From positions 4,260,001-4,292,000 of the forward strand of contig NC_008312.1 in NCBI RefSeq assembly GCF_000014265.1: a stretch of DNA of 32,000 bases. Direction: 5' to 3'. A program made the translations under genes and the position numbers. Shown piece by piece: positions 13,670 to 31,026 of this stretch. Position 1 is the stretch's first letter. Each line of letters opens with the position of its first letter. The notes under the pieces are model-generated. The model was not told where the DNA came from. It saw only the letters and a list, made by a program, of their open reading frames with translations, and ran no database searches. The stretch is from Trichodesmium erythraeum IMS101 (GTDB lineage Bacteria > Cyanobacteriota > Cyanobacteriia > Cyanobacteriales > Microcoleaceae).

Positions 13670-14851
13670 TTAATCATGGCTATAGCGATAATCTGCAACT
13701 ATCATATCCCCTAGTCCTTCTGTCTTGGCAGTTGGTTCTTGAATTTCTTCATCATTCTCGATACTCCAACGACGAAGACTATGGAGCACATAAGTCTTAA
13801 GATCGTCTACAGTCACGAAACCCTTTTTCTCCCGGTCTGCATCACCGCTGAGTCCTTCTATTAGGTAGTGGGTGAAGACTCCAGAATTTTTCTCTGGTGA
13901 CTCTAGGGCTTTTTGCTGTGCTGTACTCGCGGCAATTAAGGCAAAACCTTCAGCTAATTCATAAGCATTTTGAATGAATTGGGGCTCGTCAATTCCTCGT
14001 CCGGTTTCGACTCCCATATGACAAGCATCCAATGTCAGTACTAAACGTCTTGCTTTGCTAGAATGCATGGATTTTTTTATGTCGGCTAGAGACAAACCTG
14101 TTTTTTCGATGGTTGGTAAACGGGTATCCCTGACTATGAGCATAGGTTGTTCATCGCGCCCAAGTTTACCGTGACAAGCAAAATACACCAGCAATAGGTC
14201 ATCTACATCGACCATATTGCATAGGTTAATTAATTCAGCTTCTATATTGTTGTGGATGGGGAAGCGGCGGCTATCAGATTCAAGATCATCATGTAAACAC
14301 ATGACTGTGTATCCAAGTTCTTTGAGTTTCTTTTCTAATTTTTGCACATCTTTTACACAGAATTTTAACTTGTGAACTCCTGGATCATTATAGCGGTTGA
14401 CTCCTACCAAAAAAGCCCAACGATTTTTTATGGGTTGACGTTTTTCTTCTTCGAGCTTTCTTTTTTTTGTGCCTCGAATTGTAGTTTCTGTCTTGGTTTC
14501 TGGTTTAAGGTTATCCAGAGTTGAGTTATCTGCAAAAGCATTTTCCAGTTCTATAATTAGATTGACTAGTTGTTGGTGACGTTGATCTTCTTCTTCGATT
14601 AAATCTTTTAAGAGACGTAACAGTAAGACAAGAGCATTTTCTTTGGTGTCACTGTGATATTTGTTATGTAAATAGCTAATTACTAAGTTTACTCTACTGG
14701 CCATACTGTTGGCTTGGGGTAAAAAACGCCAAGGTCTTAGTGGTTGATAAGTGGAAACAATAGACTGAAGGGCGCGATCGCTCTCAAATTGTTCACAGTC
14801 TAACAGAAATTGACGCAATTTTTGATATAGTTCAGGGGGAATGCCAGCCAT
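13670..14851 (-). CDS. Caspase-family (peptidase C14, orthocaspase/metacaspase-like) protease with N-terminal Death-like effector-associated adaptor domain (EAD-type)
   Basis: Intact His-Cys dyad: VYFACHGKLG (His codon 14170-14172) and LTLDACHMG (Cys codon 14011-14013). WAFLVGVNRYN is a typical p20 start. The N-terminal ~85 aa (14597-14851) are homologous to the C-terminus of the 500-aa protein and the N-terminus of the 372-aa protein. Confidence 0.85.
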   Translation of the reverse strand: MAGIPPELYQKLRQFLLDCEQFESDRALQSIVSTYQPLRPWRFLPQANSMASRVNLVISYLHNKYHSDTKENALVLLLRLLKDLIEEEDQRHQQLVNLIIELENAFADNSTLDNLKPETKTETTIRGTKKRKLEEEKRQPIKNRWAFLVGVNRYNDPGVHKLKFCVKDVQKLEKKLKELGYTVMCLHDDLESDSRRFPIHNNIEAELINLCNMVDVDDLLLVYFACHGKLGRDEQPMLIVRDTRLPTIEKTGLSLADIKKSMHSSKARRLVLTLDACHMGVETGRGIDEPQFIQNAYELAEGFALIAASTAQQKALESPEKNSGVFTHYLIEGLSGDADREKKGFVTVDDLKTYVLHSLRRWSIENDEEIQEPTAKTEGLGDMIVADYRYSHD

Positions 14852-15153: not shown

Positions 15154-15186
15154 CTACTATGAGTTGCTGACGGCCTATTTGCTATA

Positions 15187-15582: not shown

Positions 15583-15777
15583 TTTTCCTCCTATTGACTA
15601 ATAGTACAAAATACAACTCAGTAAAAGGGCGATTCAAAGGGCCGAGCGTTCTCTGACATTTTACAGCATATTTCAGATTTATCAGGTACCCCCAAACCGT
15701 CAATATACTGGTAATATATGATTTTTAGCATTTACCCTGTACATCATTCGCCCGAAATCTGCTGTGTCTATATTTTT

Positions 15778-17280
15778 TTATAAACAATACTTAAGCTTTT
15801 CTGCTAATTCAGATAAAGTTTGATTCCGAGTATCTGCTGGATCAATTGTACTACTAAGGGAGTTTACCAAAATAACCAGTACATTCTCATTGGTATCGCT
15901 ACGATACTTATTTACTAAAAAGCCAATCACTAGTCTGACTCGTTGGGCCGTATTTTTACCTTCTGGTAAGCTATTGGCCCAAGGAGAGAGCCGAGCCTGA
16001 CCTTTGAAAAAACTTTGTAGTTCTTGATTAGTTTCAAATTGGTCACACTCTAACAGAGCTTTATACAGTTGATGACGAAGTTCGTCAGTAATTCCTCGGG
16101 TCTTGTTGCCAGAAGGTGTCTGAGTAAGGTTTTCCTTTATTGCGGCTTTTAGATTTTGCAGGTGAGTACGCTTAGGACTCAGGAATTCCAGATCTGCTTG
16201 AATTTGACTTTGCAATTTTTTGCGGATGTAATTTAAAAAATCTTCCCACAAACTTAAGTCAGTATCGGGTAGCTCCCCTAGCTTTTCTAGTTTCATCCTA
16301 TAATTTTTTTCATTAGTAGCAATGGTATTTTTGTGGGCTTCCAATTCCTCTAAGTAGTCAGCATACTTAATATCTATATCCTGTAATTCTACAAGTAATG
16401 GTCTAAGTTGTTCTTGCCTATTTGGTGATCGGGAAATTTGACGGAAGCTTTTCTTGTGCTGTTCTATTTTGCTATACAGTTGTTTGAGCTGACCCTCGCA
16501 CCCGCGAGATTGATGATAGATATACTGTATCTTATGACGACACCACAAAAGAAGAAGTATTAACTCGGATGCCTTATCCATTTTCTTTTCCTCTGGATCC
16601 AGATTTTGGCATTTCAACCAAACTAGAATATGAAGTCGCTGACTAGGGTCTTTATGTCGGCTTTCATATTCAAAAATCGGGTTTCCCAGTAAATGACCTG
16701 TATTTATTAGCTCAGTTCTATTTGTTGTTGGCAGTAATTTAGCAACACAAGCATCTGCAAAATCTTGATGGTTTTCCTGTAATTCACTTGGTTGTCCAAA
16801 AAGTAATAGGGTTTGCCCTAGAGAAGCTTGAATTTGTGAGGGGAGTAGTAGGTATTGGGGATTAAGTTGAGCTAGTTGAGATAGGAAAAAAGTGCTTTGA
16901 GAATGTAGGGTGAAATCTATTGCATAAGTATCGTGTACTCGGTATGGACAGAGTAATCCTTGAAGTTGCCTATCACCAGACTTGGAGGTTATTTCAAAGT
17001 CTAATTTGGTTTGTTGATTAGGTAATAAAATTTCATATTCACTTTCTAGGTTATCTTCTGCTGCGGGAAAATACTGGTTATTTTGATAACTAATTAGTTG
17101 TTGTTGCAGATTTTGCAGTTCTGGAATATTCAGCTTATTTCCCAAATCTACTAACTGTTCCCACAACCGGGGTGCTTTTGAAGTAGGTTTTAATCCCTGG
17201 TTGATACTGTTGCGCAGATGGAAAGCATAGAGTACAAGACTGGGACTATGCAGTCCTATGGTCTGGGGTATTTCTTTCAT
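15778..17280 (-). CDS. Hypothetical protein: unknown ~270-aa N-domain, coiled coil, C-terminal EAD-type adaptor domain
   Basis: The C-terminal 105 aa (15781-16095) read GITDELRHQLYKALLECDQFETNQELQSFFKGQARLSPWANSLPEGKNTAQRVRLVIGFLVNKYRSDTNENVLVILVNSL. They align with the caspase N-terminus at roughly 40% identity by eye. The middle region is heptad-rich (KYADYLEELEAHKNTIATNEKNYRMKLEKL). Confidence 0.7.
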   Translation of the reverse strand: MKEIPQTIGLHSPSLVLYAFHLRNSINQGLKPTSKAPRLWEQLVDLGNKLNIPELQNLQQQLISYQNNQYFPAAEDNLESEYEILLPNQQTKLDFEITSKSGDRQLQGLLCPYRVHDTYAIDFTLHSQSTFFLSQLAQLNPQYLLLPSQIQASLGQTLLLFGQPSELQENHQDFADACVAKLLPTTNRTELINTGHLLGNPIFEYESRHKDPSQRLHILVWLKCQNLDPEEKKMDKASELILLLLWCRHKIQYIYHQSRGCEGQLKQLYSKIEQHKKSFRQISRSPNRQEQLRPLLVELQDIDIKYADYLEELEAHKNTIATNEKNYRMKLEKLGELPDTDLSLWEDFLNYIRKKLQSQIQADLEFLSPKRTHLQNLKAAIKENLTQTPSGNKTRGITDELRHQLYKALLECDQFETNQELQSFFKGQARLSPWANSLPEGKNTAQRVRLVIGFLVNKYRSDTNENVLVILVNSLSSTIDPADTRNQTLSELAEKLKYCL

Positions 17281-17464
17281 TATTTGGGCAGTTTGGACTG
17301 GTAATCTTAAGTATTTATTGTATTATAATTTTCCAGAAAAGAGGAGGTAGGTAGGAAGTTTACATCTAACCTCCCTAGGGAGTAGGGAAGTAATTGATGA
17401 TTTCTGTGGTATAATTGACTAGATTTTTTCTTATTGGAGATGTGTGATTGAAGTTTTTTCATTA

Positions 17465-20400
17465 TTAGCCGATCGCGCAAAACCCTGCCCAGTAGAATGG
17501 TGATTCAAAGGGCTGATACTTATCTGACATTTGATGCAAACGACAGGCTAGATTCATTTCCAGGGTTGGACTCAGGGGGATTTTATTTTCTAAAATCCAT
17601 TTTTCCAACTCTTTTTTGGTTAGGTCTCGCAGCCAAAGTTGAGCTTGGTTAAGAGCGATCGCTACATTAGTCTGCTCCTGGGAATTTAGCAAATTTTTAT
17701 ACAACTGAATCATCAAAAGGGCTGTGGAGAGGTCATTAACAGTCCAGAGACTACTAACCACACTTGGACTCCCTGCATAGAGAAAACCGCTGGGCAGACC
17801 AATATATTCATCCCCAAGGGATTTAAAATCGCTCAGGCCTGTTTCGCAGGCGGAGAGGCTGGTGAGGCGACATTGACGCAAGTCTAAGGCGAAAATATCC
17901 CCTAAAGTTAGGCATTTTTCCAAATTAATCCCATTTCCATCTGCAGTTTCCTGAGGAGTTGGAGTTGTACTCCCTGCCAACAGCAGAGCAGAATCAATAG
18001 GCGATTTAAAATTAAAATAACCGCGACAGGCAAAATGAGCCACGTTGGTTTCAGCCAGACGTTCCTGGGTGAGGGCAGTTTTGGTAGCTTGTTGTCGTTC
18101 TAAGACGTCATCGTTAGGATAAAAGTCAGCGCGAATAGTGGCAACTTCTGGCTCGGTAAAACTGAGGTCTTCTGTAGGGTTCGTGACACTGAAAAAATGT
18201 TTGAGTGAGGAACGGTTCCAGGTTTGACTCAGTTGCAGCAGTTGGAGGCTGGGAGCATAGCTGAGACTTCCAGGAAAGCGCTCCATGAGTAAATCTCCAT
18301 TGGCTAAAGGCATGGCATGGAGGGGAAATAGGTGTAGGAACCGATGGGGAATGAGGATGAGGCGGTCGCATTTCTTTCCTTGCTGGTAAAAAATCTCGCC
18401 GACCTGGGTGAGGAGGCCATCGATATCAAGAATCTCGGCCAACCTTTTGAGGTTGGAGGCTAAATGGTCTTGCCACTGTTTTTTGTCTTCTTGCAAATAT
18501 GCAGTCAAATAATCATCTCCCCAATTTACTAAGGCTTCAAGCGTTTTTTTGTCAGTTTGTTTGACTAGCAGACTGTTGGCGGTCAGAATAAAGGTGATAA
18601 TTTTATCCTTCGTAATATACCACTCAATTATGGTAGTGCTTTCATCAATTCGACTTTGGGTATCACTCCAAGAAATCGGCTCTACCCTCTGAGTCAGGCT
18701 GAAGCTGGAGTCTATAGGCTTGATCCGTTCAAGTGTCTCCTCTAGCTGTTGCCTTGATAGCTGCAATTCTTGTTGTAGCTGTTGCTGTGATGCCATGAGC
18801 GATCGCCGCTGGGGTTCTTCTGGTGGGCTTGTATTTCCAGATAGTCGCTCTAGAACTCCTTGTAACCGCCTTTCTAGTGATGGAATGGTGCTTCGTAGTC
18901 GATCTAGCTCGGCGATGATCTCTTGGGGAACATCGCCTTTAGGATAGATGTCGCGCTTGGCTAGAAGTTCGACTAGGTTGCGAGTTTTGCTGCGTTCGGC
19001 TGTTTTGAAGGCTTGATCCCATTGCTCTAAATTGATGTATGTTTGCACCAGATTTTGATAAACTGATATTGCTTCTGCTATAATCTCTTGGCGGCGTTTG
19101 TCGGTAGTTGCCCAACTGCGGCTGAGTTCCACTGCAGCTATGGCTTTTTCATAGTTGTCGGCTGCGAGTTGCCAGTTTTGGTTGTCGAAATATAGGTAGC
19201 CTAAGTTGTTGGTGGTTTGTAGATGGTCGATGGGGTTTGCTTCCAGGGTACGCACCAGCAAAGCTTGTTGGAATGCAGCAATGGCGACTTCAATATTTTC
19301 GGCTTTTTCTCCCCTTATTCTGTAAATGTAGGCAGCGCCGAGATTATTTTGAGTCATTGCCCAGTCCATGGGGAAGTCAGTTTGGGTGAGTACCTGTAAA
19401 GCTTGTTGGTATTCAGCAATGGCAGCTTCAATATTTTCGGCTTTGTCTCCCCTTATTCTGTAAATGTAGGCAGCGCCGAGATTATTTTGAGTTGTTGCCC
19501 AGTCCATGGGGAAGTCTGTTTGGGTGCGCACCAGCAAAGCTTGTTGGTATGCAGCAATGGCGGCTTCAATATTTTCGGCTTTGTCTCCCCTTATTCTGTA
19601 AATGTAGGCATTGCCGAGATTATTTTGAGTTCTTGCCCAGTCCATGGGTAAGTCAGTTTGGGTGTACACCAGCAAAGCTTGTTGGTATGCAGCAATGGCA
19701 GATTCAATATTTTCGGTTTTGTCTCCCCTTATTCTGTCACTGTAGGCAGCGCCGAGATGATTTTGAGTCATTGCCCAGTCGATGGGTAAGTCAGTTTGGG
19801 TGCGCACCAGCAAAGCTTGTTGGCATGCAGCAATGGCAGCTTCAATATTTTCGGCTTTGTCTCCCCTTATTCTGTAAATGTAGGCAACGCCGAGATTATT
19901 TTGAGTCATTGCCCAGTCGATGGGTAAGTCAGTTTGGGTGCGCACCAGCAAAGCTTGTTGGCATGCAGCAATGGCAGCTTCAATATTTTCGGCTTTGTCT
20001 CCCCTTATTCTGTAAATGTAGGCAACGCCGAGATTATTTTGAGTCATTGCCCAGTCCATGGGTAAGTCAGTTTGGGTGAACACCAGCAAAGCTTGTTGGC
20101 ATGCAGCAATAGCAGCTTCAATATTTTCGGCTTTGTCTCCCCTTATTCTTTCTCTGTAGGCATTGCCGAGATTGTTTTGAGTTCCTGCCCAGTTGATGGG
20201 GAAGTCAGTTTGGGTGTACACCAGCAAAGCTTGTTGGCATGCAGCAATGGCAGCTTCAATATTTTCGGCTTTGTCTCCCCTTATTCTGTAAATGTAGGCA
20301 ACGCCGAGATGATTTTGAGTTCCTGCCCAGTCCACGGGGAAGTCAGTTTGGGTGCGCACCAGCAAAGCTTGTTGGCATGCAGCAATGGCAGCTTCAATAT

Positions 20401-22600
20401 TTTCGGCTTTGTCTCCCCTTATTCTTTCACAGTAGGCAATGCCGAGATGATTTTGAGTCATTGCCCAGTCCATGGGGAAGTCAGTTTGGGTGCGCACCAG
20501 CAAAGCTTGTTGGAATGCAGCAATGGCGGCTTCAATATTTTCGGCTTTGTCTCCCCTTATTCTTTCTCTGTAGGCATTGCCGAGATTATTTTGAGTTCCT
20601 GCCCAGTCCATGGGGAAGTCTGTTTGGGTGCGTACCAGCAAAGCTTGTTGGAATGCAGCAATGGCGGCTTCAATATTTTCGGCTTTGTCTCCCCTTATTC
20701 TGTCACTGTAGGCAATGCCGAGATTATTTTGAGTTCCTGCCCAGTCCATGGGGAAGTCTGTTTGGGTGAACACCAGCAAAGCTTGTTGGCATGCAGCAAT
20801 AGCAGCTTCAATATTTTCGGCTTTGTCTCCCCTTATTCTGTTACTGTAGGCAAGGCCGAGATTATTTTGAGTTTTTGCCCAGTCGATGGGGAAGTCAGTT
20901 TGGCTGTGCACCAGCAAAGCTTGTTCGTATGCAGCAATGGCAGTTTCAATATTTTCGGCTTTGTCTCCCCTTATTCTGTCACTGTAGGCATTGCCGAGAT
21001 TATTTTGAGTCATTGCCCAGTCCATGGGGAAGTCAGTTTGGGTGCGCACCAGCAAAGCTTGTTGGTATGCAGCAATGGCGGCTTCAATATTTTCGGCTTT
21101 GTCTCCCCTTATTCTGTTACTGTAGGCAATGCCTAGATTATTTTGAGTTGCTGCCCAGTCGATGGGGAAGTCAGTTTGGGTGCGCACCAGCAAAGCTTGT
21201 TGGCATGCAGCAATGGCAGCTTCAATATTTTGGGCTTTGTCTCCCCTTATTCTGTCTCTGTAGGCAACGCCGAGATTATTTTGAGTCATTGCCCAAATTT
21301 CCCGGTGACTCTTAGAGGTAAAGACTTTTAGCACGACTTCATAACCTGCAATACTAATTTCCATGTTGTTTGCTTTGTTACCCAGAGGAAATTCCTGAAT
21401 GAGGCCACTGAAATAACCAATAGACATAGCCATATCTTCTGCTACATCCGCCTCCACTTCAGAAAATATAGCAGTTGCCCGGTGTCGCAATATATCAGCA
21501 CAGTTACCATCAAGCTTATCTAAGTTTTGTTCTAGGAGTGGGTAAACAACTTTCGAGTTACCTTTGCTTTGTCTGGTTGCCTGCAATACCTCTCCCAAAA
21601 ACTTCAAATAATTTTGTTTGTCTATATCAGTTTTAATAGTACTTTTTAGTTCTTCAATGTCATTATTTGATTTTTGATTAGCTAATTTAACAGTCTCAAG
21701 CAACATCTCGTTTATCAGAGTGGGGACTTTAGAGAGATCTACTCCTAGATTTTCCAGAACCCTTACAGCTACTCCTTCTCCTTCTCGAATTAAACCCAAA
21801 AGTAAATGCTCTGTCCCAATATAATTATGTCCTAATTGCTGTGCTTCCTCCAAAGAGAATTCTAAAACTGTTTTAGCTCTAGGAGCAAATGGAATTTCTG
21901 CTTCTACATCTCCCGAACCACGGCCAATTATTTTTTCCACTTCAATCCGAGCATCCTTTAGGTTTACGCCCATATATTTTAGGACTTTGGCCGCTACCCC
22001 TGTTCCTTCTCCAATTAAACCCAGAAGGATTTGTTCTGTCTCTACAAAGTCATGTCCCAAGCGACGGGCCTCATCCTGGGCCAACATGATCGCTTTGATT
22101 GGTTTTTCGGTGAAGCGATCAAACATACTTTTAGACCTCTGACGAATATCCACCTCTACCTCATCAGTCTCAAGCAACATCTCGTTTATCAGAGTGGGGA
22201 CTTTAGAGAGATCTACTCCTAGATTTTCCAGAACCCTTACAGCTACTCCTTCTCCTTCTCGAATTAAACCCAAAAGTAAATGCTCTGTCCCAATATAATT
22301 ATGTCCTAATTGCTGTGCTTCCTCCGAAGAGAATTCTAAAACTGTTTTAGCTCTAGGAGCAAATGGAATTTCTGCTTCTACATCTCCTGAACCACGGCCA
22401 ATTATTTTTTCCACTTCAATCCGAGCATCCTTTAGGCTTACGCCCATAGATTTTAGGACTTTGGCTGCTACCCCTGTTCCTTCTCCAATTAAACCCAGAA
22501 GGATTTGTTCTGTATCTACAAAGTTATGTCCCAAACGACCAGCCTCATGCTGGGCCAACATTATCGCTTTGATTGGTTTTTCGGTGAAGCGTTCAAACAT
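17465..22600 (-). CDS. Giant 1711-aa protein: 2 x ClpC-type Clp_N domain, lead-in domain, ~15 x 46-aa TPR-like repeats, linker, C-terminal CHAT (caspase-like) domain with His-to-Arg at the catalytic His position
   Basis: N-terminus [50 protein letters not shown]... is the ClpC/ClpB N-domain signature and occurs twice. The repeat unit is [46 protein letters not shown]. CHAT motifs are [10 protein letters not shown] (expected HxxxHG) and [10 protein letters not shown], then [19 protein letters not shown] and [10 protein letters not shown]. Confidence 0.9.
19240..21300 (-). repeat. Intragenic array of ~15 near-identical 138-bp (46-codon) TPR-like repeats
   Basis: RIRG(D/E)K counted 15 times in the translation. 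The period matches the 138 bp measured directly in the homologous array of the neighbouring gene (CCATGG at 24792, 24930, 25068). Confidence 0.9.
21692..22600 (-). repeat. Tandem 474-bp duplication encoding the Clp_N module (copy 1 22166-22600, copy 2 21692-22126, 39-bp linker)
   Basis: AGTCTCAAGCAACATCTCG... starts at 21692 and again at 22166. The 145-aa copies differ at 8 residues (E3D, H18D, G21R, N26D, D29E, S51Y, S55N, S92L). The promoter-distal ~230 nt differ at only 2 nt by eye. Confidence 0.9.
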
Positions 22601-22671
22601 ATTTTCAGACTTTCGTTAGGGTTTCTAGCAAATATAACTACTATGATTTCGCTTAAAACGACATAATTCAG

Positions 22672-22696
22672 TTATCAATTAATTATCAATTATCAA
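22672..22696 (-). promoter_or_regulatory. Three direct TTGATAA heptamers 72-96 nt upstream of the giant CHAT gene start (possible -35 or operator cluster)
   Basis: The plus strand reads TTATCAA at 22672, 22683 and 22690. On the coding strand this is TTGATAATTGATAATTAATTGATAA. No convincing -10 box was identified. Confidence 0.2.
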
Positions 22697-23040
22697 TTTA
22701 TTATCCCATTTTGAGATGGCTTCGGGGTGTTGATGGCCTTCCCATTAGTGGCCCTCAATATATTCTCTCTCATAATAACAATATTTTACACAATTAAACA
22801 ACAGAAATTTGCGATCGCTTCACGAACTACATTCATTATTTCCTTTAATTGTTAAATTAATAATTTCGGGCAATGTAAAATGATTAATTATTTATTCTAA
22901 TTTATTTACAGGTTGAACCAGAGATAGTTTTGCAATATTGCCAAAAATTTTTTGTTGAGAATTATAGGTTTTGTTAGATTTTTGATGATGTTGGGGAACG
23001 GAAATATTTTTTATACACAAAAAGAAGTTTATAATTGAAA

Positions 23041-23124
23041 CTTAGTCCTAATATCCTTAGAGGGAATAAAGTCGTACGAGCCGAATTAATCCATGTTGGG
23101 TTTCCTTACCTCAACCCTACCTAG
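23041..23124 (+). repeat. Dispersed ~85-nt element, copy B
   Basis: CCTAATATCCTTAGAGGGAATAAAGTCG-TACGAGCCGAATTAATCCATGTTGGGTTTCCTTACCTCAACCCTACC is collinear with copies A and C. Confidence 0.7.
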
Positions 23125-23176
23125 GACTGACTAAAACCTATAAATTAGGGGATAGCCAGACAAGGACTATGGCATC

Positions 23177-23285
23177 CAGGGATGATTTTGGGGTCAGTTT
23201 AGAAAAGCAAATTGATACTTATTATCTGGTTGTTAATCTTTAAACCTAAAACCTAAAACCTAACACCTAAAACCTAAAACCTAAC
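23177..23285 (+). repeat. Solo copy of the 92-bp heptamer-bearing unit, same orientation as the 11499-11957 array
   Basis: CAGGGATGATTTT...ATTGATACTTATTATCTGGTTGTTAATCTTTAAACCTAAAACCTAAAACCTAACACCTAAAACCTAAAACCTAAC parallels 11499-11600 (CAGGGATGATTTT...ATTAATATTTGTTTTCTGTTTGTTAATGTTTAAACCTAAAACC...). Confidence 0.65.
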
Positions 23286-23290
23286 GCTTC

Positions 23291-23326
23291 ATTGTTGGGT
23301 TTCCTTGCCTCAACCCAGCCTACAAA
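23291..23326 (+). repeat. Partial copy (hairpin half only) of the dispersed ~85-nt element
   Basis: ATTGTTGGGTTTCCTTGCCTCAACCCAGCCTACAA matches the 3' half of copies A-C. Confidence 0.55.
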
Positions 23327-23569
23327 TAAGAGATAGATTTATTTATAGAAATTGGTTAGCGATCGCCCCTCAATTCAGTAATAATTTTTGTTCTAATTAA
23401 CTAACAAACTGATATAATATAAGTAAGAGTTAGCCATTAGGAAAGAGATTTGGAGGCTTGAGATTGCTATCATGACAGACTGCAACCGGAACCCTGTTCC
23501 TCCCAATGACAGAAATGCCTTGCCCGTAGGTAAGTCCTGATCAAGTTCAAAAATAATCAAAAAAATATT

Positions 23570-24199
23570 ATGGTTAAAACAATACCAGCTAGTCAAATTG
23601 ACCTATATTCTTTAGAAGAAAATTTTGGTTTAAAACGGGCATACGAACCCACTTTTTTCCCGGAATGGCAAGAAAATTTACCAGAATTGACGGAATTGGA
23701 AAAACAAGAATTAGTGCAGCTTAAAGCGGATTATTTGCGTCTTTCTAAACGTCCCATGTTAGAACCTCTGGTAAAAATGGTGGTATTATCACCTTTATTG
23801 AGGGCAGCAGGTTTTTATCGGGAACCCTTTTTTCTCTCCGCTGAAAAACAGATAAAAATTACTTCCGAAGATGGGGGAGCGATCGTTACAGGTAAAATTG
23901 ATATATTGGTTTATACCCCTCAATTTTGGGTATTAGTAATTGAGGCGAAACGGGTTGAATATTCATTACAAGTAGGTATTCCTCAAATATTGGCTTATAT
24001 GTTAGACTCTCCAGAAATCGAACAATCTGCTTTTGGATTTGTGACAAATGGTAGTGAGTTTAGATTTGTTAAACTACTTAAAAGAGATACTATCCAATAT
24101 GGATTATCTCGTTTATTTTCCATAGATAGTGGGGAAGATTTATATACTGTTGTGAGTATTTTTAAGAGCCTCGCTCAATTCGTGATTCAGCAAAATTAA
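23570..24199 (+). CDS. PD-(D/E)XK-type (HsdR-N-like) putative nuclease-fold protein, paralogue of 8906..9508
   Basis: GKIDILVY...WVLVIEAKRVEYSLQVGIPQILAYM gives a D...E-x-K...Q arrangement. It is the only plus-strand gene inside the island and sits between the two repeat-array genes. Confidence 0.55.
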   Translation: MVKTIPASQIDLYSLEENFGLKRAYEPTFFPEWQENLPELTELEKQELVQLKADYLRLSKRPMLEPLVKMVVLSPLLRAAGFYREPFFLSAEKQIKITSEDGGAIVTGKIDILVYTPQFWVLVIEAKRVEYSLQVGIPQILAYMLDSPEIEQSAFGFVTNGSEFRFVKLLKRDTIQYGLSRLFSIDSGEDLYTVVSIFKSLAQFVIQQN

Positions 24200-24309
24200 T
24201 GGCGCTTATATTATGTTTTAAGAATCTAGAGTATTTATGAAAAAACTTAGAAAAAATTGGGGTAGTCCTGCATATATTAGTAGCTTTGTTGTCTGAAAGT
24301 AGCGATCGG

Positions 24310-24390
24310 CAATATCCTTAGAGGAACTAAAGTCCAACTACGAGCCGAATTAATCTATGTTGGGTTTCGTTGCCTCAACCTAGTCTACAA
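24310..24390 (+). repeat. Dispersed ~85-nt element, copy C
   Basis: CAATATCCTTAGAGGAACTAAAGTCCAACTACGAGCCGAATTAATCTATGTTGGGTTTCGTTGCCTCAACCTAGTCTACAA. Confidence 0.7.
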
Positions 24391-24495: not shown

Positions 24496-27400
24496 TCAAG
24501 GATTTAATACTTCTTTTACACCTTCAATAAGGAACTGAGCAACAGGATGATCAATCATTTTTTCTAAAGCTGCTAAACCTCCTGCTTTTAATCCTCGGAT
24601 AATTCGATATTTTAACTGAGGATTTTTATCAACTTCATCCATAGCTTTAGCACTTAAAACTCTATAACTATCGTTAGGATAATCTTCTGAAAGTTGATTG
24701 AGTAGATTTTTAATATCTTTAGCTGCTTGTGCTAGGTCTTGATTAATTTTTCTGTAGGCATTGCCGAGATTATTTTGAATTGTTGCCCATTCCATGGGGA
24801 AGTCAGTTTGGGTGTACACCAGCAAAGCTTGTTCGTATGCAGCAATGGCGGCTTCAATATTTTCCGCTTTGTCTCCCCTTATTCTGTTTCTGTAGGCATT
24901 GCCGAGATTATTTTGAATTGTTGCCCATTCCATGGGGAAGTCAGTTTGGGTGTACACCAGCAAAGCTTGTTCGTATGCAGCAATGGCAGCTTCAATATTT
25001 TCGGCTTTGTCTCCCCTTATTCTGTAAATGTAGGCAGCGCCGAGATTATTTTGAGTTGTTGCCCAGTCCATGGGGAAGTCTGTTTGGGTGCGCACCAGCA
25101 AAGCTTGTTGGTATGCAGCAATGGCAGCTTCAATATTTTCGGCTTTGTCTCCCCTTATTCTGTTACTGTAGGCATTGCCGAGATTATTTTGAATTGTTGC
25201 CCATTCCATGGGGAAGTCAGTTTGGGTGTACACCAGCAAAGCTTGTTGGTATGCAGCAATGGCAGCTTCAATATTTTCGGCTTTGTCTCCCCTTATTCTG
25301 TCACTGTAGGCATTGCCGAGATTATTTTGAGTTGTTGCCCAGTCCATGGGGAAGTCTGTTTGGGTGCGCACCAGCAAAGCTTGTTGGTATGCAGCAATGG
25401 CAGCTTCAATATTTTCGGCTTTGTCTCCCCTTATTCTGTCACTGTAGGCAATGCCGAGATTATATTGAGTTCCTGCCCAGTCCATGGGGAAGTCTGTTTG
25501 GGTGCGCACCAGCAAAGCTTGTTGGTATGCAGCAATGGCAGCTTCAATATTTTCGGCTTTGTCTCCCCTTATTCTGTCACTGTAGGCATTGCCGAGATTA
25601 TTTTGAGTTGTTGCCCAGTCCATGGGGAAGTCAGTTTGGGTGTACACCAGCAAAGCTTGTTGGAATGCAGCAATGGCAGCTTCAATATTTTCGGCTTTGT
25701 CTCCCCTTATTCTGTCACTATAGGCATTGCCGAGATTATTTTGAGTTCCGGCCCAGTCGATGGGGAAGTCAGTTTGGGTGCTTACCTGCAAAGCTCGTTT
25801 GTATGCAGCAATGGCGGCTTCAATATTTTCGGCTTTGTCTCCCCTTATTCTGTCTCTGTAGGCATTGCCGAGATTATTTTGAGTCATTGCCCAGTTGATG
25901 GGGAAGTCAGTTTGGGTGCGCACCAGCAAAGCTTGTTGGTATGCAGCAATGGCAGCTTCAATATTTTCGGCTTTGTCTCCCCTTATTCTGTTACTGTAGG
26001 CATTGCCGAGATTATTTTGAGTCATTGCCCAGTTGATGGGGAAGTCAGTTTGGGTGTACACCAGCAAAGCTTGTTGGTATGCAGCAATGGCGGCTTCAAT
26101 ATTTTCGGCTTTGTCTCCCCTTATTCTGTTTCTGTAGGCAATGCCGAGATTATTTTGAGTATTTGCCCAGTCCATGGGGAAGTCAGTTTGGGTGTACACC
26201 AGCAAAGCTTGTTGGTATGCAGCAATGGCAGCTTCAATATTTTCGGCTTTGTCTCCCCTTATTCTGTCACTGTAGGCAGCGCCGAGATTATTTTGAGTCA
26301 TTGCCCAGTCCATGGGGAAGTCAGTTTGGGTGTACACCAGCAAAGCTTGTTGGTATGCAGCAATGGCAGCTTCAATATTTTGGGCTTTGTCTCCCCTTAT
26401 TCTGTCTCTGTGGGCATTGCCGAGATTATTTTGAGTCATTGCCCAGTCCATGGGGAAGTCAGTTTGGGTGTACACCAGCAAAGCTTGTTCGTATGCAGCA
26501 ATGGCAACTTCAATATTTTCGGCTTTGTCTCCCCTTATTCTCTCACTGTACCCATTGCCGAGGCTATTTTGAGTTGCTGCCCATTCAAAGGGGAAGTCAG
26601 TTTGGGTAAGCACCATCAAAGCTTGTTGGCATGCAGCAATAGCCGATTCAATATTCTGGGCTTTGTCTCCTCTTATTCTGTTACTGTAGGCAATGCCGAG
26701 ATGATTTTGAATAATTCCCCACTCTTTAGGAAACTCTTCTCGTCGAAAAATTTGACAAGCAATCTGATATCCAGTAATAGCAATTTCTAAGTTTATCGCT
26801 ATATTTCCCAATGTAAAATTGCCTAATAAATTGCTAAATCTAGTAAGAGATGAACCAATTCTATGTAATTCAACTGGTTCCGTATTTAACAGTATATTAG
26901 TTGACCATTCTTGTAATAACCCAATTAAATCTTCATTTAACCTCTCTAGATTTGCTTCCAAAAATGGATAAATTTTCCATTGAGGATTATCATCATTATC
27001 AGAAACAATATTTAGTAACTCTTCGAGGAAAGACAACTCAACAGAAATTAGAGGAATTTCATCAGGAATTGACAAACTAACTCCAGCAATTTTAACTTGA
27101 CGTTCCCACCTAGAAAGCTGAGAGAATTGTTTTGTTGCACCCTCCAAATCTCCACTCGTAAAAGACACCATTCCACGGGCGTAGGTAATCAGTGGTGGTT
27201 CAAATTCCGCTAAAGCAGTTGGAAAACTTTCTATAAATAACCCAAATCTAAACAACTCCTTCCAGTTTTTCTGCTTCAATCTCTCTTCAATAGCCAGTGC
27301 CAGTTTATGATTAAGCTGATTAGGCTGACTACAAGCAAGGGACATCCAATACTCAGCCGTTCCTAAGTCTCTCCTCCTCAAATCATCACCATCAAGTTGC

Positions 27401-27747
27401 TGTTTCACATAGTTACTGTAGAAATCTGCTAGTTCTTTTAACCGAGGCTTATCAAAACGCTTATCTTCCTTCAACTCTTGCAACAACAAATTTCGGACAT
27501 TTACATCCATTTCATAAAGCTCATAGCCTACCTCACGGCACAAGCGAGATAAAAGTATGCGAGCAACTGCCGTCCAAGGAGCTTGGGGGACAAAGCGAAG
27601 CCAAATTTGGTAGAGCAAATCAGGAGTAAGTGTCTGTGGAAACGCTGCATGACAAGCTAAATCAAGATGTGTACCGTCGAATTGTTGGGCAAATCCTACC
27701 ACCCTCTCAACAGCTATTTCCGAATCTATTGCTTTAGTTGAATTCAT
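24496..27747 (-). CDS. 1083-aa vWA-MoxR-associated protein: ~230-aa helical N-domain, lead-in domain, ~14.5 x 46-aa TPR-like repeats, ~85-aa helical C-terminal tail
   Basis: The ATG at 27747 overlaps the vWA stop (ATGA). The repeats use the same consensus as the CHAT protein, and RIRGDK was counted 14 times plus one truncated unit. The lead-in (FLEELL...YPFLEANLERL...FTLGNIAINLEIAITGYQ) is homologous to the CHAT protein's (FLGEVL...[11 protein letters not shown]...[18 protein letters not shown]). Confidence 0.85.
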   Translation of the reverse strand: MNSTKAIDSEIAVERVVGFAQQFDGTHLDLACHAAFPQTLTPDLLYQIWLRFVPQAPWTAVARILLSRLCREVGYELYEMDVNVRNLLLQELKEDKRFDKPRLKELADFYSNYVKQQLDGDDLRRRDLGTAEYWMSLACSQPNQLNHKLALAIEERLKQKNWKELFRFGLFIESFPTALAEFEPPLITYARGMVSFTSGDLEGATKQFSQLSRWERQVKIAGVSLSIPDEIPLISVELSFLEELLNIVSDNDDNPQWKIYPFLEANLERLNEDLIGLLQEWSTNILLNTEPVELHRIGSSLTRFSNLLGNFTLGNIAINLEIAITGYQIACQIFRREEFPKEWGIIQNHLGIAYSNRIRGDKAQNIESAIAACQQALMVLTQTDFPFEWAATQNSLGNGYSERIRGDKAENIEVAIAAYEQALLVYTQTDFPMDWAMTQNNLGNAHRDRIRGDKAQNIEAAIAAYQQALLVYTQTDFPMDWAMTQNNLGAAYSDRIRGDKAENIEAAIAAYQQALLVYTQTDFPMDWANTQNNLGIAYRNRIRGDKAENIEAAIAAYQQALLVYTQTDFPINWAMTQNNLGNAYSNRIRGDKAENIEAAIAAYQQALLVRTQTDFPINWAMTQNNLGNAYRDRIRGDKAENIEAAIAAYKRALQVSTQTDFPIDWAGTQNNLGNAYSDRIRGDKAENIEAAIAAFQQALLVYTQTDFPMDWATTQNNLGNAYSDRIRGDKAENIEAAIAAYQQALLVRTQTDFPMDWAGTQYNLGIAYSDRIRGDKAENIEAAIAAYQQALLVRTQTDFPMDWATTQNNLGNAYSDRIRGDKAENIEAAIAAYQQALLVYTQTDFPMEWATIQNNLGNAYSNRIRGDKAENIEAAIAAYQQALLVRTQTDFPMDWATTQNNLGAAYIYRIRGDKAENIEAAIAAYEQALLVYTQTDFPMEWATIQNNLGNAYRNRIRGDKAENIEAAIAAYEQALLVYTQTDFPMEWATIQNNLGNAYRKINQDLAQAAKDIKNLLNQLSEDYPNDSYRVLSAKAMDEVDKNPQLKYRIIRGLKAGGLAALEKMIDHPVAQFLIEGVKEVLNP
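24745..26745 (-). repeat. Intragenic array of ~14.5 near-identical 138-bp repeats, cross-identical to the array at 19240-21300
   Basis: Exact 138-bp period (CCATGG at 24792 / 24930 / 25068). Units are above 90% identical to each other and to those of the CHAT gene by eye. Confidence 0.9.
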
Positions 27748-28979
27748 AATGATTTTTGCCGGCTCAACTCATAAAAATCTTTCCCATACACATAGCGACC
27801 ACGCAAAGCATTGATAGCAGCATTAAATCCTTGAGGACTCATCTCAAACATTGGCACAAACCGAGCAATTTCCCCAGCAGTCGTGCCTTGCCAACTATCA
27901 TTAGGCATAGGATTTAGCCAAGCATAATAACGGACTGACTGCCGAAGTTGTTCAATAAACCTCTGGGTGCACTCAATTCGCTCTGGGTTATAATTACTCC
28001 TGGCAGCTCCAGCATCACTGACCATAAGTACTCCTGCTCTTTCATCGATAGCTCCTAAAATATCTGTAATTAGTTGAGCTTTGAGGCGAGTTGGGTCACT
28101 ATAAAAATATATTTCAGGATAATTATAAAAATAATAAACACTCGCCTGCTCAATATTTCCACCCCGTCGAGCTTTATCTATTAATTGACGGGATAAATGA
28201 TGAAAAGGAATCATTGAGCCACCTTGATCAACCAGTAACACAAGTTTAACTCGATTTACATAATTTGGCATCAGCACCGCTTCAATTAAGATGCATTGCT
28301 GACAAATCTTGGCTACCGTAGCTGGTACATTCAACTTGTCCGATATACCTTGGGGGACTGAACGACTTAAAAAACGCCAACTCTGCTTAATCTGCCGAGG
28401 GGTCACTGGCAGGTATTGAGCAGCTAGATCTTGGTATTCAGAAATCATTTCATTAGACCTATTATAATGTCGGATAGCTTGAATGACCAGTTCTGGTTCA
28501 TCTATTTCTAGGGGAATATCAGTCAATGGACTCGGTTTTGACACAGGTATTTCTGGCTCTTTTAATGGAGCTTTTTCCTCAAGTTGCTCAGATATGTTGC
28601 GAACAGGCGTCGCTGTAGATGGTAAAGTCGAAGAGTCCATAACTTCCTCAGACTCCTTTGATACAGGTCTAGTTGAAGCGCTAGTTGGGGAGGGATTCGG
28701 TGTATCTTCGACAGGTTGTGGTAATTCAGCAGAAGAAGGAGCATTGGTTATTGCCCGACCTAGAAGTTGATGTAACAGGCGGGCCTCCTGTTCAGATTTT
28801 GTCCACAAAGTACAACATAGTCGTTCTAAAGAGTCGCGATCGCCTATACCAAACCCACCTTGCAATGCCCTCAGCACTAACATATAGTCTTCAACTCCCA
28901 AAGGCAAGCCATATTGGCGCAAACTGTAAAAAAGAGACAGTAAGACCTTCAACAAAGGTACTTCTTCAACGACATTCAT
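27744..28979 (-). CDS. von Willebrand factor A (vWA, CoxE-like) domain protein with Pro/Ser-rich linker
   Basis: The ATG at 28979 overlaps the MoxR stop (ATGA), with AGGAGG 7 nt upstream. LVLLVDQGGSM is a MIDAS-position motif (DxGxS where DxSxS is canonical). VLMVSDAGAA is a typical later vWA strand. The N-terminal helical region resembles CoxE-type proteins. Confidence 0.75.
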   Translation of the reverse strand: MNVVEEVPLLKVLLSLFYSLRQYGLPLGVEDYMLVLRALQGGFGIGDRDSLERLCCTLWTKSEQEARLLHQLLGRAITNAPSSAELPQPVEDTPNPSPTSASTRPVSKESEEVMDSSTLPSTATPVRNISEQLEEKAPLKEPEIPVSKPSPLTDIPLEIDEPELVIQAIRHYNRSNEMISEYQDLAAQYLPVTPRQIKQSWRFLSRSVPQGISDKLNVPATVAKICQQCILIEAVLMPNYVNRVKLVLLVDQGGSMIPFHHLSRQLIDKARRGGNIEQASVYYFYNYPEIYFYSDPTRLKAQLITDILGAIDERAGVLMVSDAGAARSNYNPERIECTQRFIEQLRQSVRYYAWLNPMPNDSWQGTTAGEIARFVPMFEMSPQGFNAAINALRGRYVYGKDFYELSRQKSL

Positions 28980-29923
28980 TTTCTTTCCTCCTGGGAGGAG
29001 TATAAATATTCTCTATAATCATGCCAATACTTAAGTAGAACTTGAGCAAAAGGCAGTTCACCGTTTAGCTTCCCTAATACCTCCTCTTCAGGATATTGTC
29101 GTAGAATGGTAAACCAATCAATTAACTCACTGGTACTTACCTTTTTACCAGTTTTGCCACTATCTCTCTCCATCTGTTTTCTCAGTTCACCAAAGCGCCA
29201 TACTGCTTTTCTCATAACCTCCGGTGCTGCCTCTGGAAAATGAGCCTTAACAATGTTAACCAATTCAGCTTCATTAGGAAATTCGATATAATAAAAAAGA
29301 CAACGACGTAAGAAAGCATCTGGTAAATCTTTTTCTTCATTACTGGTAATAAATATAATTGGTGGTTCTTTAGCCTTAATTTCGTATTCTTTCTCTACTT
29401 CTTTTTCTTGACTTTTTATCTCTGGTATGGTAAAGCGCTTTTCATCTAGCACCTGAAGCAAATCATTAGGGAAGTCAATATCAGCCTTATCAATTTCATC
29501 AATTAGAATTACAGTACGCTGGGAATTTTCAAAAGCACGACCCAGTGGCCCTAGTTTAATATAATTCCAAAGATTATCAACCCTAGAGAGTTTCTGTCCA
29601 TCAAGACGGGCTAGTTGGGCATCGTGGAGGCGAGCGATCGCATCGTAAGTGTAACAACCATCTTTAGCCTTGCTTGTAGACTGAATATACCAAGGTTCGT
29701 AGGGTAAACCTAGCTCATAAGCCACAGCCCTCGCCAAGCGAGTTTTACCACTACCAGGTTCCCCCTTCAACAATAAAGGACGTTTTTGTAAAAAAATAGT
29801 CAGATTAACTGCCTCAACCAACTCTGGTGAAGGTATATAAGGTTCAAGTCCATGCAGTTCGCACTCCTGTTCCGAAGGTTGTCTTTCCCCCGTATAGAGG
29901 CGAGGAATCACTGAATCAACCAT
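28976..29923 (-). CDS. MoxR-type AAA+ ATPase
   Basis: Walker A LLKGEPGSGKTRLA, Walker B VILIDEIDKAD, and sensor/Arg region ITSNEEKDLPDAFLRRC. The ORF track starts at a TTG (29944). I prefer the ATG at 29923 because AGGAGGG lies 9 nt upstream (29932-29938). Either start overlaps the upstream gene's end. Confidence 0.85.
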   Translation of the reverse strand: MVDSVIPRLYTGERQPSEQECELHGLEPYIPSPELVEAVNLTIFLQKRPLLLKGEPGSGKTRLARAVAYELGLPYEPWYIQSTSKAKDGCYTYDAIARLHDAQLARLDGQKLSRVDNLWNYIKLGPLGRAFENSQRTVILIDEIDKADIDFPNDLLQVLDEKRFTIPEIKSQEKEVEKEYEIKAKEPPIIFITSNEEKDLPDAFLRRCLFYYIEFPNEAELVNIVKAHFPEAAPEVMRKAVWRFGELRKQMERDSGKTGKKVSTSELIDWFTILRQYPEEEVLGKLNGELPFAQVLLKYWHDYREYLYSSQEERK

Positions 29924-31026
29924 TTGGCCAACCCTCCTTCCCAACTACGGCCACAGTAATCACAAATTTGTCTATAAACCAGCTCAGGAACACCTCCTTG
30001 AGATTTTTGGAGTAATTCATCAACAGATATACTCTCAGGTACCATATTTTTTCGTACAACACTATTTTTCCATGTTTCTAAATGATAGTATGAAAATTTA
30101 CCAGTTTCAGGTAAGCATAAAGGGTCCTTAGGATATTTTGAATTTTCAAACTTCCAAGTTAGGGAAACTCCTGATTTACAAACTATTCCTTTATCATCAA
30201 CCAAAAACATTAATAAATAAGTTTTTTGGTGAGTAGCTTTTTCGACTATTGGCCACCAAAATTTTTTAATTAAATCTGGTAAAAAACCTGTAAAAGTACG
30301 GTGGAGTCCTGAAAAAATAAAAATTAAATTTTGAGTTTCTAAACATTGTAAAATTGCATTAATAACCTGTTCGTCTGTAGTATTTGAACCAAAAAATTCA
30401 GAAGAAATTTTTCCCCATAATTCCCTAATATCGCTCATCCGAGTTAAATCCCTTTGGATTTTACGTCCATTACTTAATTCTGGCAATTTACGTAATAGCC
30501 TAGTAAGCAGAGCTTTCTGACCACAATTTTCATCATACCCATCAATCAGAAAAGCTCCCGTTCGTTTGTGTGATTTTTGGCATTTTATAGCTTTTCTAAC
30601 AGTATCTTCTTGTTCTGAAAAATCAATATCAATTATTGATTGAAACAACTGGCTGTTATTATTATTGCCTAAAGATGTTGATGAATTTAAGGGTAAAGAT
30701 GGATTTTCTAATTCTTTTTTAACCTTGTTCCATAAATTATTAATTCTATGCCACATCTCGTCTTCTTCATAGTATTCATCTCTCAAATTTTCCAAAAAAA
30801 TTATAAATATACACCCATATTCTTGATGTCTTGTTTTTATTAAAATATCCAGATTTAACATCACTAATAACCCTGGTGTATTAGCTTCTTTCAGTTTATT
30901 TGATACCACATTTAATTCCTTAATTGCCCCGCAAAAACTACGCAAGTATTGAAAATTGGTAAAAATGTCGCATTCTAAAAGAACATCCCTGCATTCTTTA
31001 TAAAGTTCTCCTGGTAGCCCACTCAT
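29908..31026 (-). CDS. EAD-type adaptor domain fused to a degenerate (probably inactive) P-loop NTPase-like domain
   Basis: N-terminus MSGLPGELYKECRDVLLECDIFTNFQYLRSF shares the ELY-x5-LL-[DE]-C-[DE]-x-F...L-x-S signature with the caspase N-terminus. The Walker-A position reads FLIDGYDENCGQKALL (no GK[ST]). The Walker-B position reads LIFIFSGLH (no Asp). It is the first gene of the MoxR-vWA operon. Confidence 0.65.
   Translation of the reverse strand: MSGLPGELYKECRDVLLECDIFTNFQYLRSFCGAIKELNVVSNKLKEANTPGLLVMLNLDILIKTRHQEYGCIFIIFLENLRDEYYEEDEMWHRINNLWNKVKKELENPSLPLNSSTSLGNNNNSQLFQSIIDIDFSEQEDTVRKAIKCQKSHKRTGAFLIDGYDENCGQKALLTRLLRKLPELSNGRKIQRDLTRMSDIRELWGKISSEFFGSNTTDEQVINAILQCLETQNLIFIFSGLHRTFTGFLPDLIKKFWWPIVEKATHQKTYLLMFLVDDKGIVCKSGVSLTWKFENSKYPKDPLCLPETGKFSYYHLETWKNSVVRKNMVPESISVDELLQKSQGGVPELVYRQICDYCGRSWEGGLAKWLIQ

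Follow-up and report, generated by a model that had tools for sequence, protein, structure and literature searches.

Why should two neighboring genes of the cyanobacterium Trichodesmium erythraeum IMS101 encode long arrays of repeat units that are almost identical to one another, except at a handful of positions in each unit? We pursued this question in a 32,000-nt stretch (RefSeq assembly GCF_000014265.1, contig NC_008312.1, positions 4,260,001 to 4,292,000 of the forward strand), hereafter the window, whose own numbering is used for all coordinates below. A prior sequence-only reading had flagged the arrays as highly conserved repeats with localized hypervariability and had proposed diversifying selection on a binding surface. 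The explanation that we consider the probable one is that the arrays are candidate ligand-sensor grooves that recombine and are held under diversity-enhancing selection, in two systems of putatively immune type, one with a CHAT protease and the other with bacterial Death-like domain (bDLD1), MoxR and vWA proteins. The two genes and their arrays of tetratricopeptide repeat (TPR) units are as follows.

17465..22600, minus strand: gene 1, an intact open reading frame (ORF) of 1711 aa, comprising four Clp_N stretches, a helical pre-array domain, 15 TPR units, capping TPRs and a CHAT protease domain
19241..21310, minus strand: array 1 (gene 1), 15 units of 138 bp
24496..27747, minus strand: gene 2, an intact ORF of 1083 aa, comprising a promiscuous N-domain, a helical pre-array domain, 14 units plus a truncated unit, and an 83-aa tail
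24805..26736, minus strand: array 2 (gene 2), 14 units of 138 bp, of which units 1-2 are divergent and units 3-14 highly conserved
24748..24804, minus strand: truncated fifteenth unit of array 2, 19 residues, seen in the translation

Tandem Repeats Finder reported a 138-bp period in both arrays, at 19246-21295 for array 1 (14.9 copies, 92% matches, score 3302) and at 24752-26710 for array 2 (14.2 copies, 93% matches). Slicing on the RIRG[DE]K anchor yielded 15 and 14 units with a spacing of always exactly 46 codons, matching the earlier estimate of about 29 units in the two genes, and the second array shows the same unit. Numbered from the N-terminus, unit k of array 1 runs from 21310-138(k-1) down to 21173-138(k-1), and codon j of a unit with upper coordinate hi occupies hi-3(j-1)-2 to hi-3(j-1). 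Both arrays read through in frame, free of stops, over ~2 kb. The units, judged by eye to be more than 90% identical, had a computed mean pairwise DNA identity of 90.4% across all 29, and of 92.3% for the 25 core units that are left when the four terminal units are set aside; masking the eight variable codons raised DNA identity to 97.0%. Amino-acid identity among units was 83-84%, next to 90-92% for DNA. All 29 units were unique, as were all 29 eight-position haplotypes, and one identical 38-residue scaffold was present in 11 of them.

The earlier consensus of the unit and every residue set listed for its variable positions were correct, to which our alignment adds isoleucine at position 8 and leucine and serine at position 43; likewise, the hexamers given for positions 18-19 are plus-strand letters that correspond, when reverse-complemented, to AGTGAC, AGTAAC, AGAGAC, AGAAAC, and ATTTAC. 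In the per-codon comparison of entropy and substitution ratios that had been proposed as a check, variation was strongly site-specific and not evenly spread over the unit. Specifically, entropy was 2.41 bits at position 8, 1.99 at 15, 1.92 at 43, 1.91 at 19, 1.66 at 18, 1.63 at 4, 1.36 at 36 and 1.24 at 5, and did not exceed 0.93 bits at any of the remaining unit positions. The six codons originally named (8, 15, 18, 19, 36, and 43) make up 13% of the unit, yet held 49% (all units) to 59% (core units) of the pairwise nucleotide differences, and 24 of the 59 non-synonymous events in a minimal counting (binomial p = 1e-7 against 6/46). Positions 4 and 5 are to be counted as variable too, and the resulting eight codons (4, 5, 8, 15, 18, 19, 36, and 43) accounted for 60-67% of pairwise differences. 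Hence, the concentration of variation described in the sequence-only reading is real and strong, but its wording, that the arrays vary almost only at six positions, was overstated. A second statement, that synonymous changes are almost absent, was similarly right in direction and too strong in degree: synonymous differences per synonymous site (pS) in the scaffold were low but stood at 0.086, with at least 20 synonymous events in total and recurrent toggles at codon 31 (GCT/GCC, 17:7), codon 46 (ACT/ACA, 22:6), and codons 32 and 42.

Based on pairwise Nei-Gojobori counts, non-synonymous differences per non-synonymous site (pN) were 0.396 in the six codons, 4.6 times the scaffold pS (bootstrap over units, 95% 3.3-6.8, with no resample below 2.8), while the scaffold itself had a pN/pS of ~0.4. 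Considered codon by codon, the ratios ranged from 2.3 to 6.3 at positions 4, 5, 8, 15, 18, 19, 36, and 43. In six pairs of units the 114-nt scaffolds were identical and the variable-codon bases differed at up to 11 of 24 sites (Fisher p down to 4e-10).

We found that both genes belong to the TPR superfamily by profile, with TPR_10 and TPR_12 above the Pfam cut-offs in each (2.8e-41 and 5.7e-19 in gene 1, 1.7e-47 and 2.5e-25 in gene 2). In an HMMER alignment to the 34-residue TPRs of SPINDLY, unit residues L13, G14, Y17, A32, Y36, and A39 coincided with signature positions 7, 8, 11, 20, 24, and 27, and the 46-residue unit corresponded to a 34-residue TPR with six further residues in the A-B loop and six in the B-A' loop. 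The NNLG motif of the unit takes up TPR positions 5-8, with Asn11 and Asn12 at TPR 5 and 6, while the variable unit positions 8, 15, 18, and 19 are TPR 2, 9, 12, and 13, and unit positions 4 and 5 are TPR 32 and 33. Of the seven positions that constitute the hypervariable concave ligand face of TPRs, namely 2, 5, 9, 12, 13, 33, and 34 (Magliery and Regan, PMC1261162), five are covered by unit positions 8, 15, 18, 19, and 5. The other two variable sites fall elsewhere in the repeat: unit position 36 (Y/C/F) is the core aromatic residue at TPR 24, and position 43 is TPR 31. A sequence search of the PDB returned only weak TPR matches (SPINDLY, LGN), so that the unit has no close solved relative.

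An AlphaFold (AF2) model of eight units, for which the input alignment was made of shifted windows from both arrays (mean predicted local distance difference test score, pLDDT, 71.5; predicted TM-score, pTM, 0.63), contained 16 helices in the eight units, as expected of a right-handed alpha-solenoid of antiparallel helix pairs, with helix A at approximately residues 3-19, helix B at approximately 25-44, and the RIRGD loop between them. The best Foldseek matches were LGN/Pins TPR crystal structures with inner-groove peptides (TM-score 0.69-0.85, E ~1e-11), and kinesin light chains ranked next; in LGN, the superhelix has helix A on its inside, and the ligand peptide runs along the inner groove (PMC6525239). 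On a helical wheel of helix A, positions 4, 5, 8, 11, 12, 15, 18, and 19 all fell inside one 140-degree arc, with the invariant residues W6, A7, T9, Q10, L13, G14, A16, and Y17 in the opposite arc, while in helix B positions 36 and 43 were in phase with a hydrophobic stripe formed by I29, A32, I33, A39, and L40. Exposure was deduced from the alignment together with helical phase, and on these grounds the six variable positions 4, 5, 8, 15, 18, and 19 plausibly line the groove along with the conserved Asn pair, and positions 36 and 43 are probably packing residues that are not exposed. The proposal that the named positions line one face is thus supported by the mapping for 8, 15, 18, and 19, which align to the concave positions TPR 2, 9, 12, and 13, and not for 36 and 43, which map to the packing stripe of helix B, so that the six named sites are probably not all on one exposed face.

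We next considered whether the two arrays have evolved apart from each other. Differences per 114 nt of scaffold were 3.8 and 3.1 within the two genes and 3.5 between them, and the domains that precede the arrays had 34% protein identity (BLASTP, 33/97) and no blastn match. That array scaffolds are equally alike between and within genes, next to flanks which are only 34% identical, indicates exchange of units between genes 1 and 2. The two features concerned are listed here.

21311..21685, minus strand: helical pre-array domain of gene 1, homologous to, and 34% identical with, its gene 2 counterpart
19414..19561 (array 1) = 24978..25125 (array 2): 148-nt identical tract, the longest exact in-register match between the arrays

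The tract exceeds one unit in length and takes in variable codons, and 200 codon shuffles gave a mean of 89 nt and a maximum of 123 nt. Moreover, 176 of 276 informative site pairs failed the four-gamete test, and association between variable sites was limited to neighboring sites. Structural covariation between variable sites was rejected as an explanation, since only physically adjacent sites associate, which fits linkage and not structural contact. Scaffold differences within this genome were 3.5, versus 6.4-7.1 between genomes; in the Trichodesmium metagenome-assembled genome (MAG) MAG_R02 they were 7.2-8.4 within, and as its units are not more alike within than between, the concerted-evolution comparison is only partly informative.

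Exact-protein look-ups of the neighboring genes recovered 15 loci (L001-L015), all but one of which end inside the arrays. Between strains, pS was 0.023 in the N-domain of gene 2 and 0.10-0.35 in the adjacent unit 1 (pN 0.06-0.125), and units 2 and 3 of array 2 were replaced by different units in contigs with 97-98% identical flanks. A Trichodesmium MAG homologue had ~24 units. The unit core had 0 exact DNA matches among JGI metagenome contigs. As a separate observation, the non-repeat N-domain of gene 2 had a pN/pS of 0.55-0.82 between strains, at a pS of ~0.023 (L001, L004, L005, L008, and L009), which fits a fast-evolving conflict gene. In one ENA metagenome contig with 97% identical flanks (L001, 11233-14445), the gene 2 counterpart had the same N-domain, ~8 much less similar units and, in its C-terminal part, a hydrolase-like region (GHPWGTW...HSMGG) followed by a bDLD1 that was 85% identical to the bDLD1 of the caspase in the window; this counterpart may be a genuine alternative allele that carries an effector and an adaptor, or else the product of chimeric assembly.

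The same site pattern was present well beyond Trichodesmium. An 11-residue core peptide of the unit recurred at 138-nt spacing in 53 stretches from genomes of Okeania, Microcoleus, Nostoc, Trichodesmium, Crocosphaera, Chloroflexota, and Methanosarcinales, and in the average of 15 arrays taken from other genomes, variability was highest at the same eight positions as here. Among 114 TPR-CHAT homologues the entropy order was 8, 15, 18, 19, 5, 4, 43, 31, 36, such that seven of the eight positions were in the top eight. Internal identity in these homologues had a median of 0.67 and a maximum of 0.91, placing the arrays studied here (0.83-0.84) among roughly the top 10%. A search at E below 1e-50 recovered more than 3300 homologues, nearly all of them annotated as CHAT plus TPR, and CHAT was at the end of six of the eight complete ORFs that carry this unit in other genomes. 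The 46-residue unit with identical 11-residue core and 138-nt spacing was also noted in a Methanosarcinales MAG (L068), in Methanotrichaceae (L026), and in Chloroflexota (L053 and L049), where the proteins with this unit end in CHAT. Its presence in archaea and Chloroflexota suggests, from sequence comparison, horizontal spread of the module.

Gene 1 had Pfam matches to Clp_N (4.9e-70) and CHAT (5e-45, PF12770), located as follows.

21691..22600, minus strand: N-terminal Clp_N region of gene 1, four Clp_N stretches in Pfam
17468..18415, minus strand: CHAT (caspase-like) protease domain of gene 1, Pfam CHAT, residues 1396-1711

The Clp_N region contains a 474-bp tandem duplication (21691-22610, 96% identity, 1.9 copies in Tandem Repeats Finder), each copy of which is one double Clp_N module. 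These modules lack an AAA+ partner and might be a bait that mimics the N-domain of host ClpC; the Clp_N-TPR-CHAT architecture was found in Microcystis homologues too. Gene 1 is probably T. erythraeum Tery_2763 / Q110X8_TRIEI, an assignment based on the UniRef name that ties a Clp_N-TPR-CHAT homologue from Microcystis to Q110X8_TRIEI, and on neighboring genes whose products are identical to IMS101 proteins. In the CHAT domain, the cysteine motif SACET is intact and aligns to GACET of Csx29. The histidine region reads HFACRG (18019-18036, residues 1522-1527), where CHAT proteases usually have H..HG; in two Trichodesmium paralogues the corresponding letters are HHATS and HHAQS. The alignment of gene 1 to Csx29 structures passes over this segment.

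Gene 2, for its part, is the last gene of an operon, and its start overlaps the end of the upstream vWA-like gene by 4 nt. The genes that accompany the two array genes are the following.

27744..28979, minus strand: vWA-like protein, VWA_CoxE at 3.7e-5, below the Pfam family cut-off; identical to ABG51949.1 of IMS101
28976..29944, minus strand: MoxR/AAA_5-type ATPase, Pfam AAA_5 at 2.2e-12, NCBIfam MadB-like at 1.9e-23
29908..31026, minus strand: bDLD1 fused to an inactive STAND, Pfam iSTAND at 2.2e-18 and bDLD1 at 1.7e-11
15778..17280, minus strand: 500-aa protein Tery_2762 with a C-terminal bDLD1, Pfam bDLD1 at 5.8e-8
13670..14851, minus strand: bDLD1-caspase (Peptidase_C14), Pfam C14 at 1.3e-16 and bDLD1 at 6.3e-10, NCBIfam caspase at 5e-31; identical to ABG51943.1

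Thus, the array of gene 2 closes a bDLD1-iSTAND/MoxR/vWA operon, and Tery_2762 and the bDLD1-caspase are located downstream of gene 1, such that three proteins of the window carry bDLD1 in Pfam, one of them being a caspase. An exact look-up of a mechanical, TTG-start version of the MoxR ORF gave no match. The N-domain, pre-array, and tail regions of gene 2 matched no Pfam family at E up to 1. Its first ~220 residues recur in cyanobacteria fused to many unrelated modules, and the partners observed in other filamentous cyanobacteria were FGE-sulfatase, receiver, GUN4, AAA-like, lipase, trypsin, HTH, sigma-70, and NB-ARC; such module swapping of the N-domain (within 26737-27747, residues 1-337) is typical of conflict systems.

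Taken together, these data point to the following mechanism. Each array would form a TPR superhelix of 46-residue units with helix A turned toward the inner groove, in which the invariant Asn11-Asn12 ladder may hold an extended polypeptide by its backbone and the variable residues 4, 5, 8, 15, 18, and 19 may set specificity, every unit providing a different pocket. The near-identical DNA of the scaffold would let units recombine, duplicate, and convert within and between the two genes, with selection keeping the contact residues different as the remainder is homogenized. In gene 1, we infer that ligand binding would release or assemble the fused CHAT protease. The operon of gene 2 could recruit the nearby bDLD1-caspase and bDLD1 protein via Death-like domain contacts, and the likely outcome would be invader-triggered cell death or arrest in the filament.

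Several points weigh against this explanation, which we nonetheless favor. The ratio of 4.6 comes from pairwise counts on recombining paralogous units, which differ from a formal, phylogenetic site test of selection, and the synonymous sites used as its yardstick may themselves be constrained. The AF2 model is of moderate confidence, and the variability at positions 36 and 43, judged from alignment and model, needs to be explained in another way, for example by adjustment of the shape or curvature of the groove. With HFACRG in place of H..HG, the protease activity of gene 1 is uncertain, and its CHAT domain may be inactive or use a different histidine. Gene 2 has no recognizable effector domain in Pfam, and neither gene matched any experimentally grounded defense model in PADLOC. 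Finally, no short-read assembly spans either array, and independent confirmation is limited to ~3 units at the start of array 2 and ~2.5 at the end of array 1.

How far do other explanations account for the same data? Arrays of this type may be structural or scaffolding solenoids, homogenized by concerted evolution, in which the variable positions are merely the least constrained surface and no ligand drives selection. Kaur et al. regard the TPRs of these systems largely in this way, as superstructure-forming or scaffolding modules; additionally, the variable positions are those that vary generically in TPRs (PMC1261162), and recombination alone can make new haplotypes on an identical scaffold. 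Yet unconstrained sites are expected to reach at most the synonymous diversity, and the six-codon pN exceeded scaffold pS to an extent (bootstrap minimum 2.8) for which relaxed constraint alone is insufficient. Homogenization should also erase neutral differences a few bases away, and yet each of the 29 haplotypes is unique. We therefore regard scaffolding without ligand-driven selection as unlikely. A similarly small chance goes to arrays that are real recognition surfaces for self or developmental targets, as in protease regulation of the HetF kind, in telling kin or colony from others, or in monitoring of the cell's own Clp system. CHAT (Caspase HetF Associated with Tprs) is named after HetF, a developmental protease, and the four Clp_N modules of gene 1 are detached from any AAA+ domain, which would suit such a function, as would the lack of PADLOC matches and the inclusion of allorecognition genes among fungal receptors with repeats of high internal conservation (HIC; PMC4986451). 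However, a fixed endogenous target predicts neither diversity-enhancing variation nor rapid turnover between strains, and the surrounding bDLD1, iSTAND, MoxR-vWA, and caspase genes are of the type assigned to conflict systems. More doubtful still, in our estimation, is a bolder version of the exchange described above, in which the arrays form a two-locus pool of cassettes and recombination on the shared scaffold continually re-deals contact haplotypes within and between the effector-less array of gene 2 and the CHAT-gene array 3.5 kb away. If true, a population, or a single filament with its multicopy genome, would carry a repertoire of receptor variants, and this would be a recombination-based, anticipatory diversification of immune sensors in bacteria that is mechanistically distinct from diversity-generating retroelements (DGRs) and analogous in principle to the diversification of vertebrate receptors by gene conversion.

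The repeats also raise the question of whether their interior order, number, or content is an artefact of a collapsed or mis-ordered assembly, which we consider very improbable. All short-read assemblies that contain the flanking genes are broken within the arrays, a near-identical assembly has two residue differences that both go toward the consensus, as is typical of repeat mixing, and the full-length products of genes 1 and 2 had no match in exact look-ups. Against this, both arrays stay in frame and stop-free over ~2 kb, their edges agree at 99.9-100% with assemblies made independently, the finished 7.75-Mb IMS101 chromosome encodes identical flanking proteins, and the site pattern recurs in more than 100 homologues, some of them from complete genomes. 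An artefact could change the order of units but not create the site-specific pattern. We give hardly any credence to the variable codons having been written by targeted mutagenesis, whether by a DGR or by another codon-targeted process. Conflict-system sensors of multicellular bacteria, MoxR-vWA systems included, are DGR-diversified, and codons 15 (AAT/ATT/GCT/GTT/CTT), 36 (TAC/TGC/TTC), and 43 superficially resemble adenine mutagenesis of AAY/TAC codons. The columns with a minor allele present at least three times had no adenine bias (A 7/46, G 8/30, C 7/35, T 4/27), and the A-rich codons (AGA ATA, AAA, AAT ATT GAA) were invariant in all 29 units. Furthermore, the variable states come from a small recurring palette and are linked to neighboring sites, as recombination predicts. 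Within the window, no reverse-transcriptase-like ORF was seen (Pfam on the ORFs of 11969-31026; the ORFs of 1-11500 read by eye) and Tandem Repeats Finder detected, beyond the two arrays, no further copy of the unit to serve as template. On these grounds, DGR or adenine-targeted mutagenesis was rejected.

If the arrays are indeed candidate sensor grooves under diversity-enhancing selection, they are a bacterial case, clean and quantifiable, of the evolutionary regime of fungal NLRs, with predicted contact residues that vary on a conserved scaffold. The setting is a family of protease-coupled receptors outside the NLRs, of which filamentous cyanobacteria have very many, with homologous arrays also in Chloroflexota and methanogenic archaea, and one pool of units is common to two differently wired systems. 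The probable specificity residues can be named, being unit positions 4, 5, 8, 15, 18, and 19 beside the Asn11-Asn12 ladder. Bloom collapse in T. erythraeum has been attributed to caspase-like programmed cell death. Since the genes adjoin a metacaspase in this bloom-forming species, the arrays are concrete candidates for an upstream trigger of cell death.

Other features of the window were noted in passing. Between the two TPR genes, a 209-aa ORF on the plus strand (23570-24199) had a weak match (6.8e-7) to HSDR_N, the N-domain of type I restriction R proteins, and a run of six AAACCTA heptamers was located at 23242-23284. The same heptamer, at about five per copy, is in a 92-bp unit repeated 4.8 times at 96% identity (11512-11956), which is separate from that run and sits just downstream of a 497-aa ORF (11969-13462). 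The G+C content of the arrays was 0.46-0.47 (19001-21000 and 25001-26000), compared with 0.27-0.41 in most of the window, and could result from Ala-rich composition or foreign origin.

Finally, we compared the arrays with systems already described. They most resemble the HIC WD40, ANK, and TPR repeats of fungal NLRs (Podospora nwd/het-e/het-d; Paoletti 2007, Dyrka 2014), with high identity among units, few hypervariable positions with a non-synonymous excess, most of these on the concave TPR face as judged by alignment, exchange of units within and between paralogues, and a predicted context of cell death or immunity. For the TPRs of fungal NLRs, positive selection at concave-face positions of HIC repeats is established (PMC4986451); such repeats have also been noted in bacterial NLRs without per-site analysis, and have been surveyed across all domains of life, ATPase-less proteins included (PMC13449251). 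Unlike in the fungal proteins, NACHT and NB-ARC are absent from both, and the array is either fused to a CHAT protease or part of a MoxR-vWA-iSTAND operon; the unit has 46 residues, not 42 or 34, and the repeat-induced point (RIP) mutation that is invoked in fungi does not apply. Pfam and NCBIfam revealed no STAND ATPase or NOD in gene 1 or gene 2, the inactive STAND being encoded separately at 29908-31026, and with neither protein having this module, genes 1 and 2 are not NLRs. The analogy to fungal NLRs drawn in the sequence-only reading accordingly extends to internal conservation, site-specific hypervariability, and exchange between paralogues, and stops short of the receptor class.

With respect to proteases, gene 1 has the architecture of the cyanobacterial TPR-CHAT family. 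Its CHAT domain matches the model of Csx29, the type III-E CRISPR TPR-CHAT protein of Craspase, at 2e-17, and Csx29 structures at 4e-4, and the working principle of Craspase is likewise a TPR module that regulates a caspase-like protease. It differs from Csx29 in scoring 63 bits against an NCBIfam cut-off of 300, in its N-terminal Clp_N, in its high internal conservation, and in its atypical catalytic His motif, and no CRISPR, gRAMP, or cas genes were present among the ORFs of the window. The extended helices and NLG-type helix-A motif are shared with LGN/Pins and kinesin light chain, which have 40-42-residue TPRs and bind an extended peptide in an inner groove lined by helix A. Sequence identity to these proteins is only 17-19%, and LGN is unlike the arrays in having eight dissimilar repeats and a fixed set of partners, with neither internal conservation nor hypervariability.

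With its iSTAND and bDLD1 components, the operon of gene 2 has the same parts as the MoxR-vWA ternary conflict systems of Kaur, Burroughs, Iyer and Aravind (2020, 2021; PMC7159879, PMC8195603). Adjacent MoxR, vWA, and iSTAND genes with Death-like adaptors are a layout described therein (PMC8195603), and here the genes are likewise adjacent, with bDLD1 on core and effector proteins and a vWA match that is weak and below cut-off. These papers attribute diversification to DGRs or module swapping, and hypervariable, internally conserved TPR arrays do not appear in the passages searched. With the DGR-diversified putative antigen sensors of multicellular bacteria (PNAS 2024, PMC10907252), the arrays share an ecological logic, as well as overlapping organisms and system types; unlike those sensors, they hold their diversity in 29 recombining units and not in one variable region, and had no reverse transcriptase, template, or adenine pattern that we could see. 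Lastly, the 42-residue TPR-like repeats of Podospora anserina (42PR; Marold et al. 2015) are, like the unit described here, a natural length variant of the TPR, at 42 instead of 46 residues. They reportedly have extended helices and very high internal identity. The arrays of the two T. erythraeum genes have all testable evolutionary hallmarks of HIC repeats, but without a NOD, with a 46-residue unit, and in a form common to a CHAT protease and a MoxR-vWA operon.

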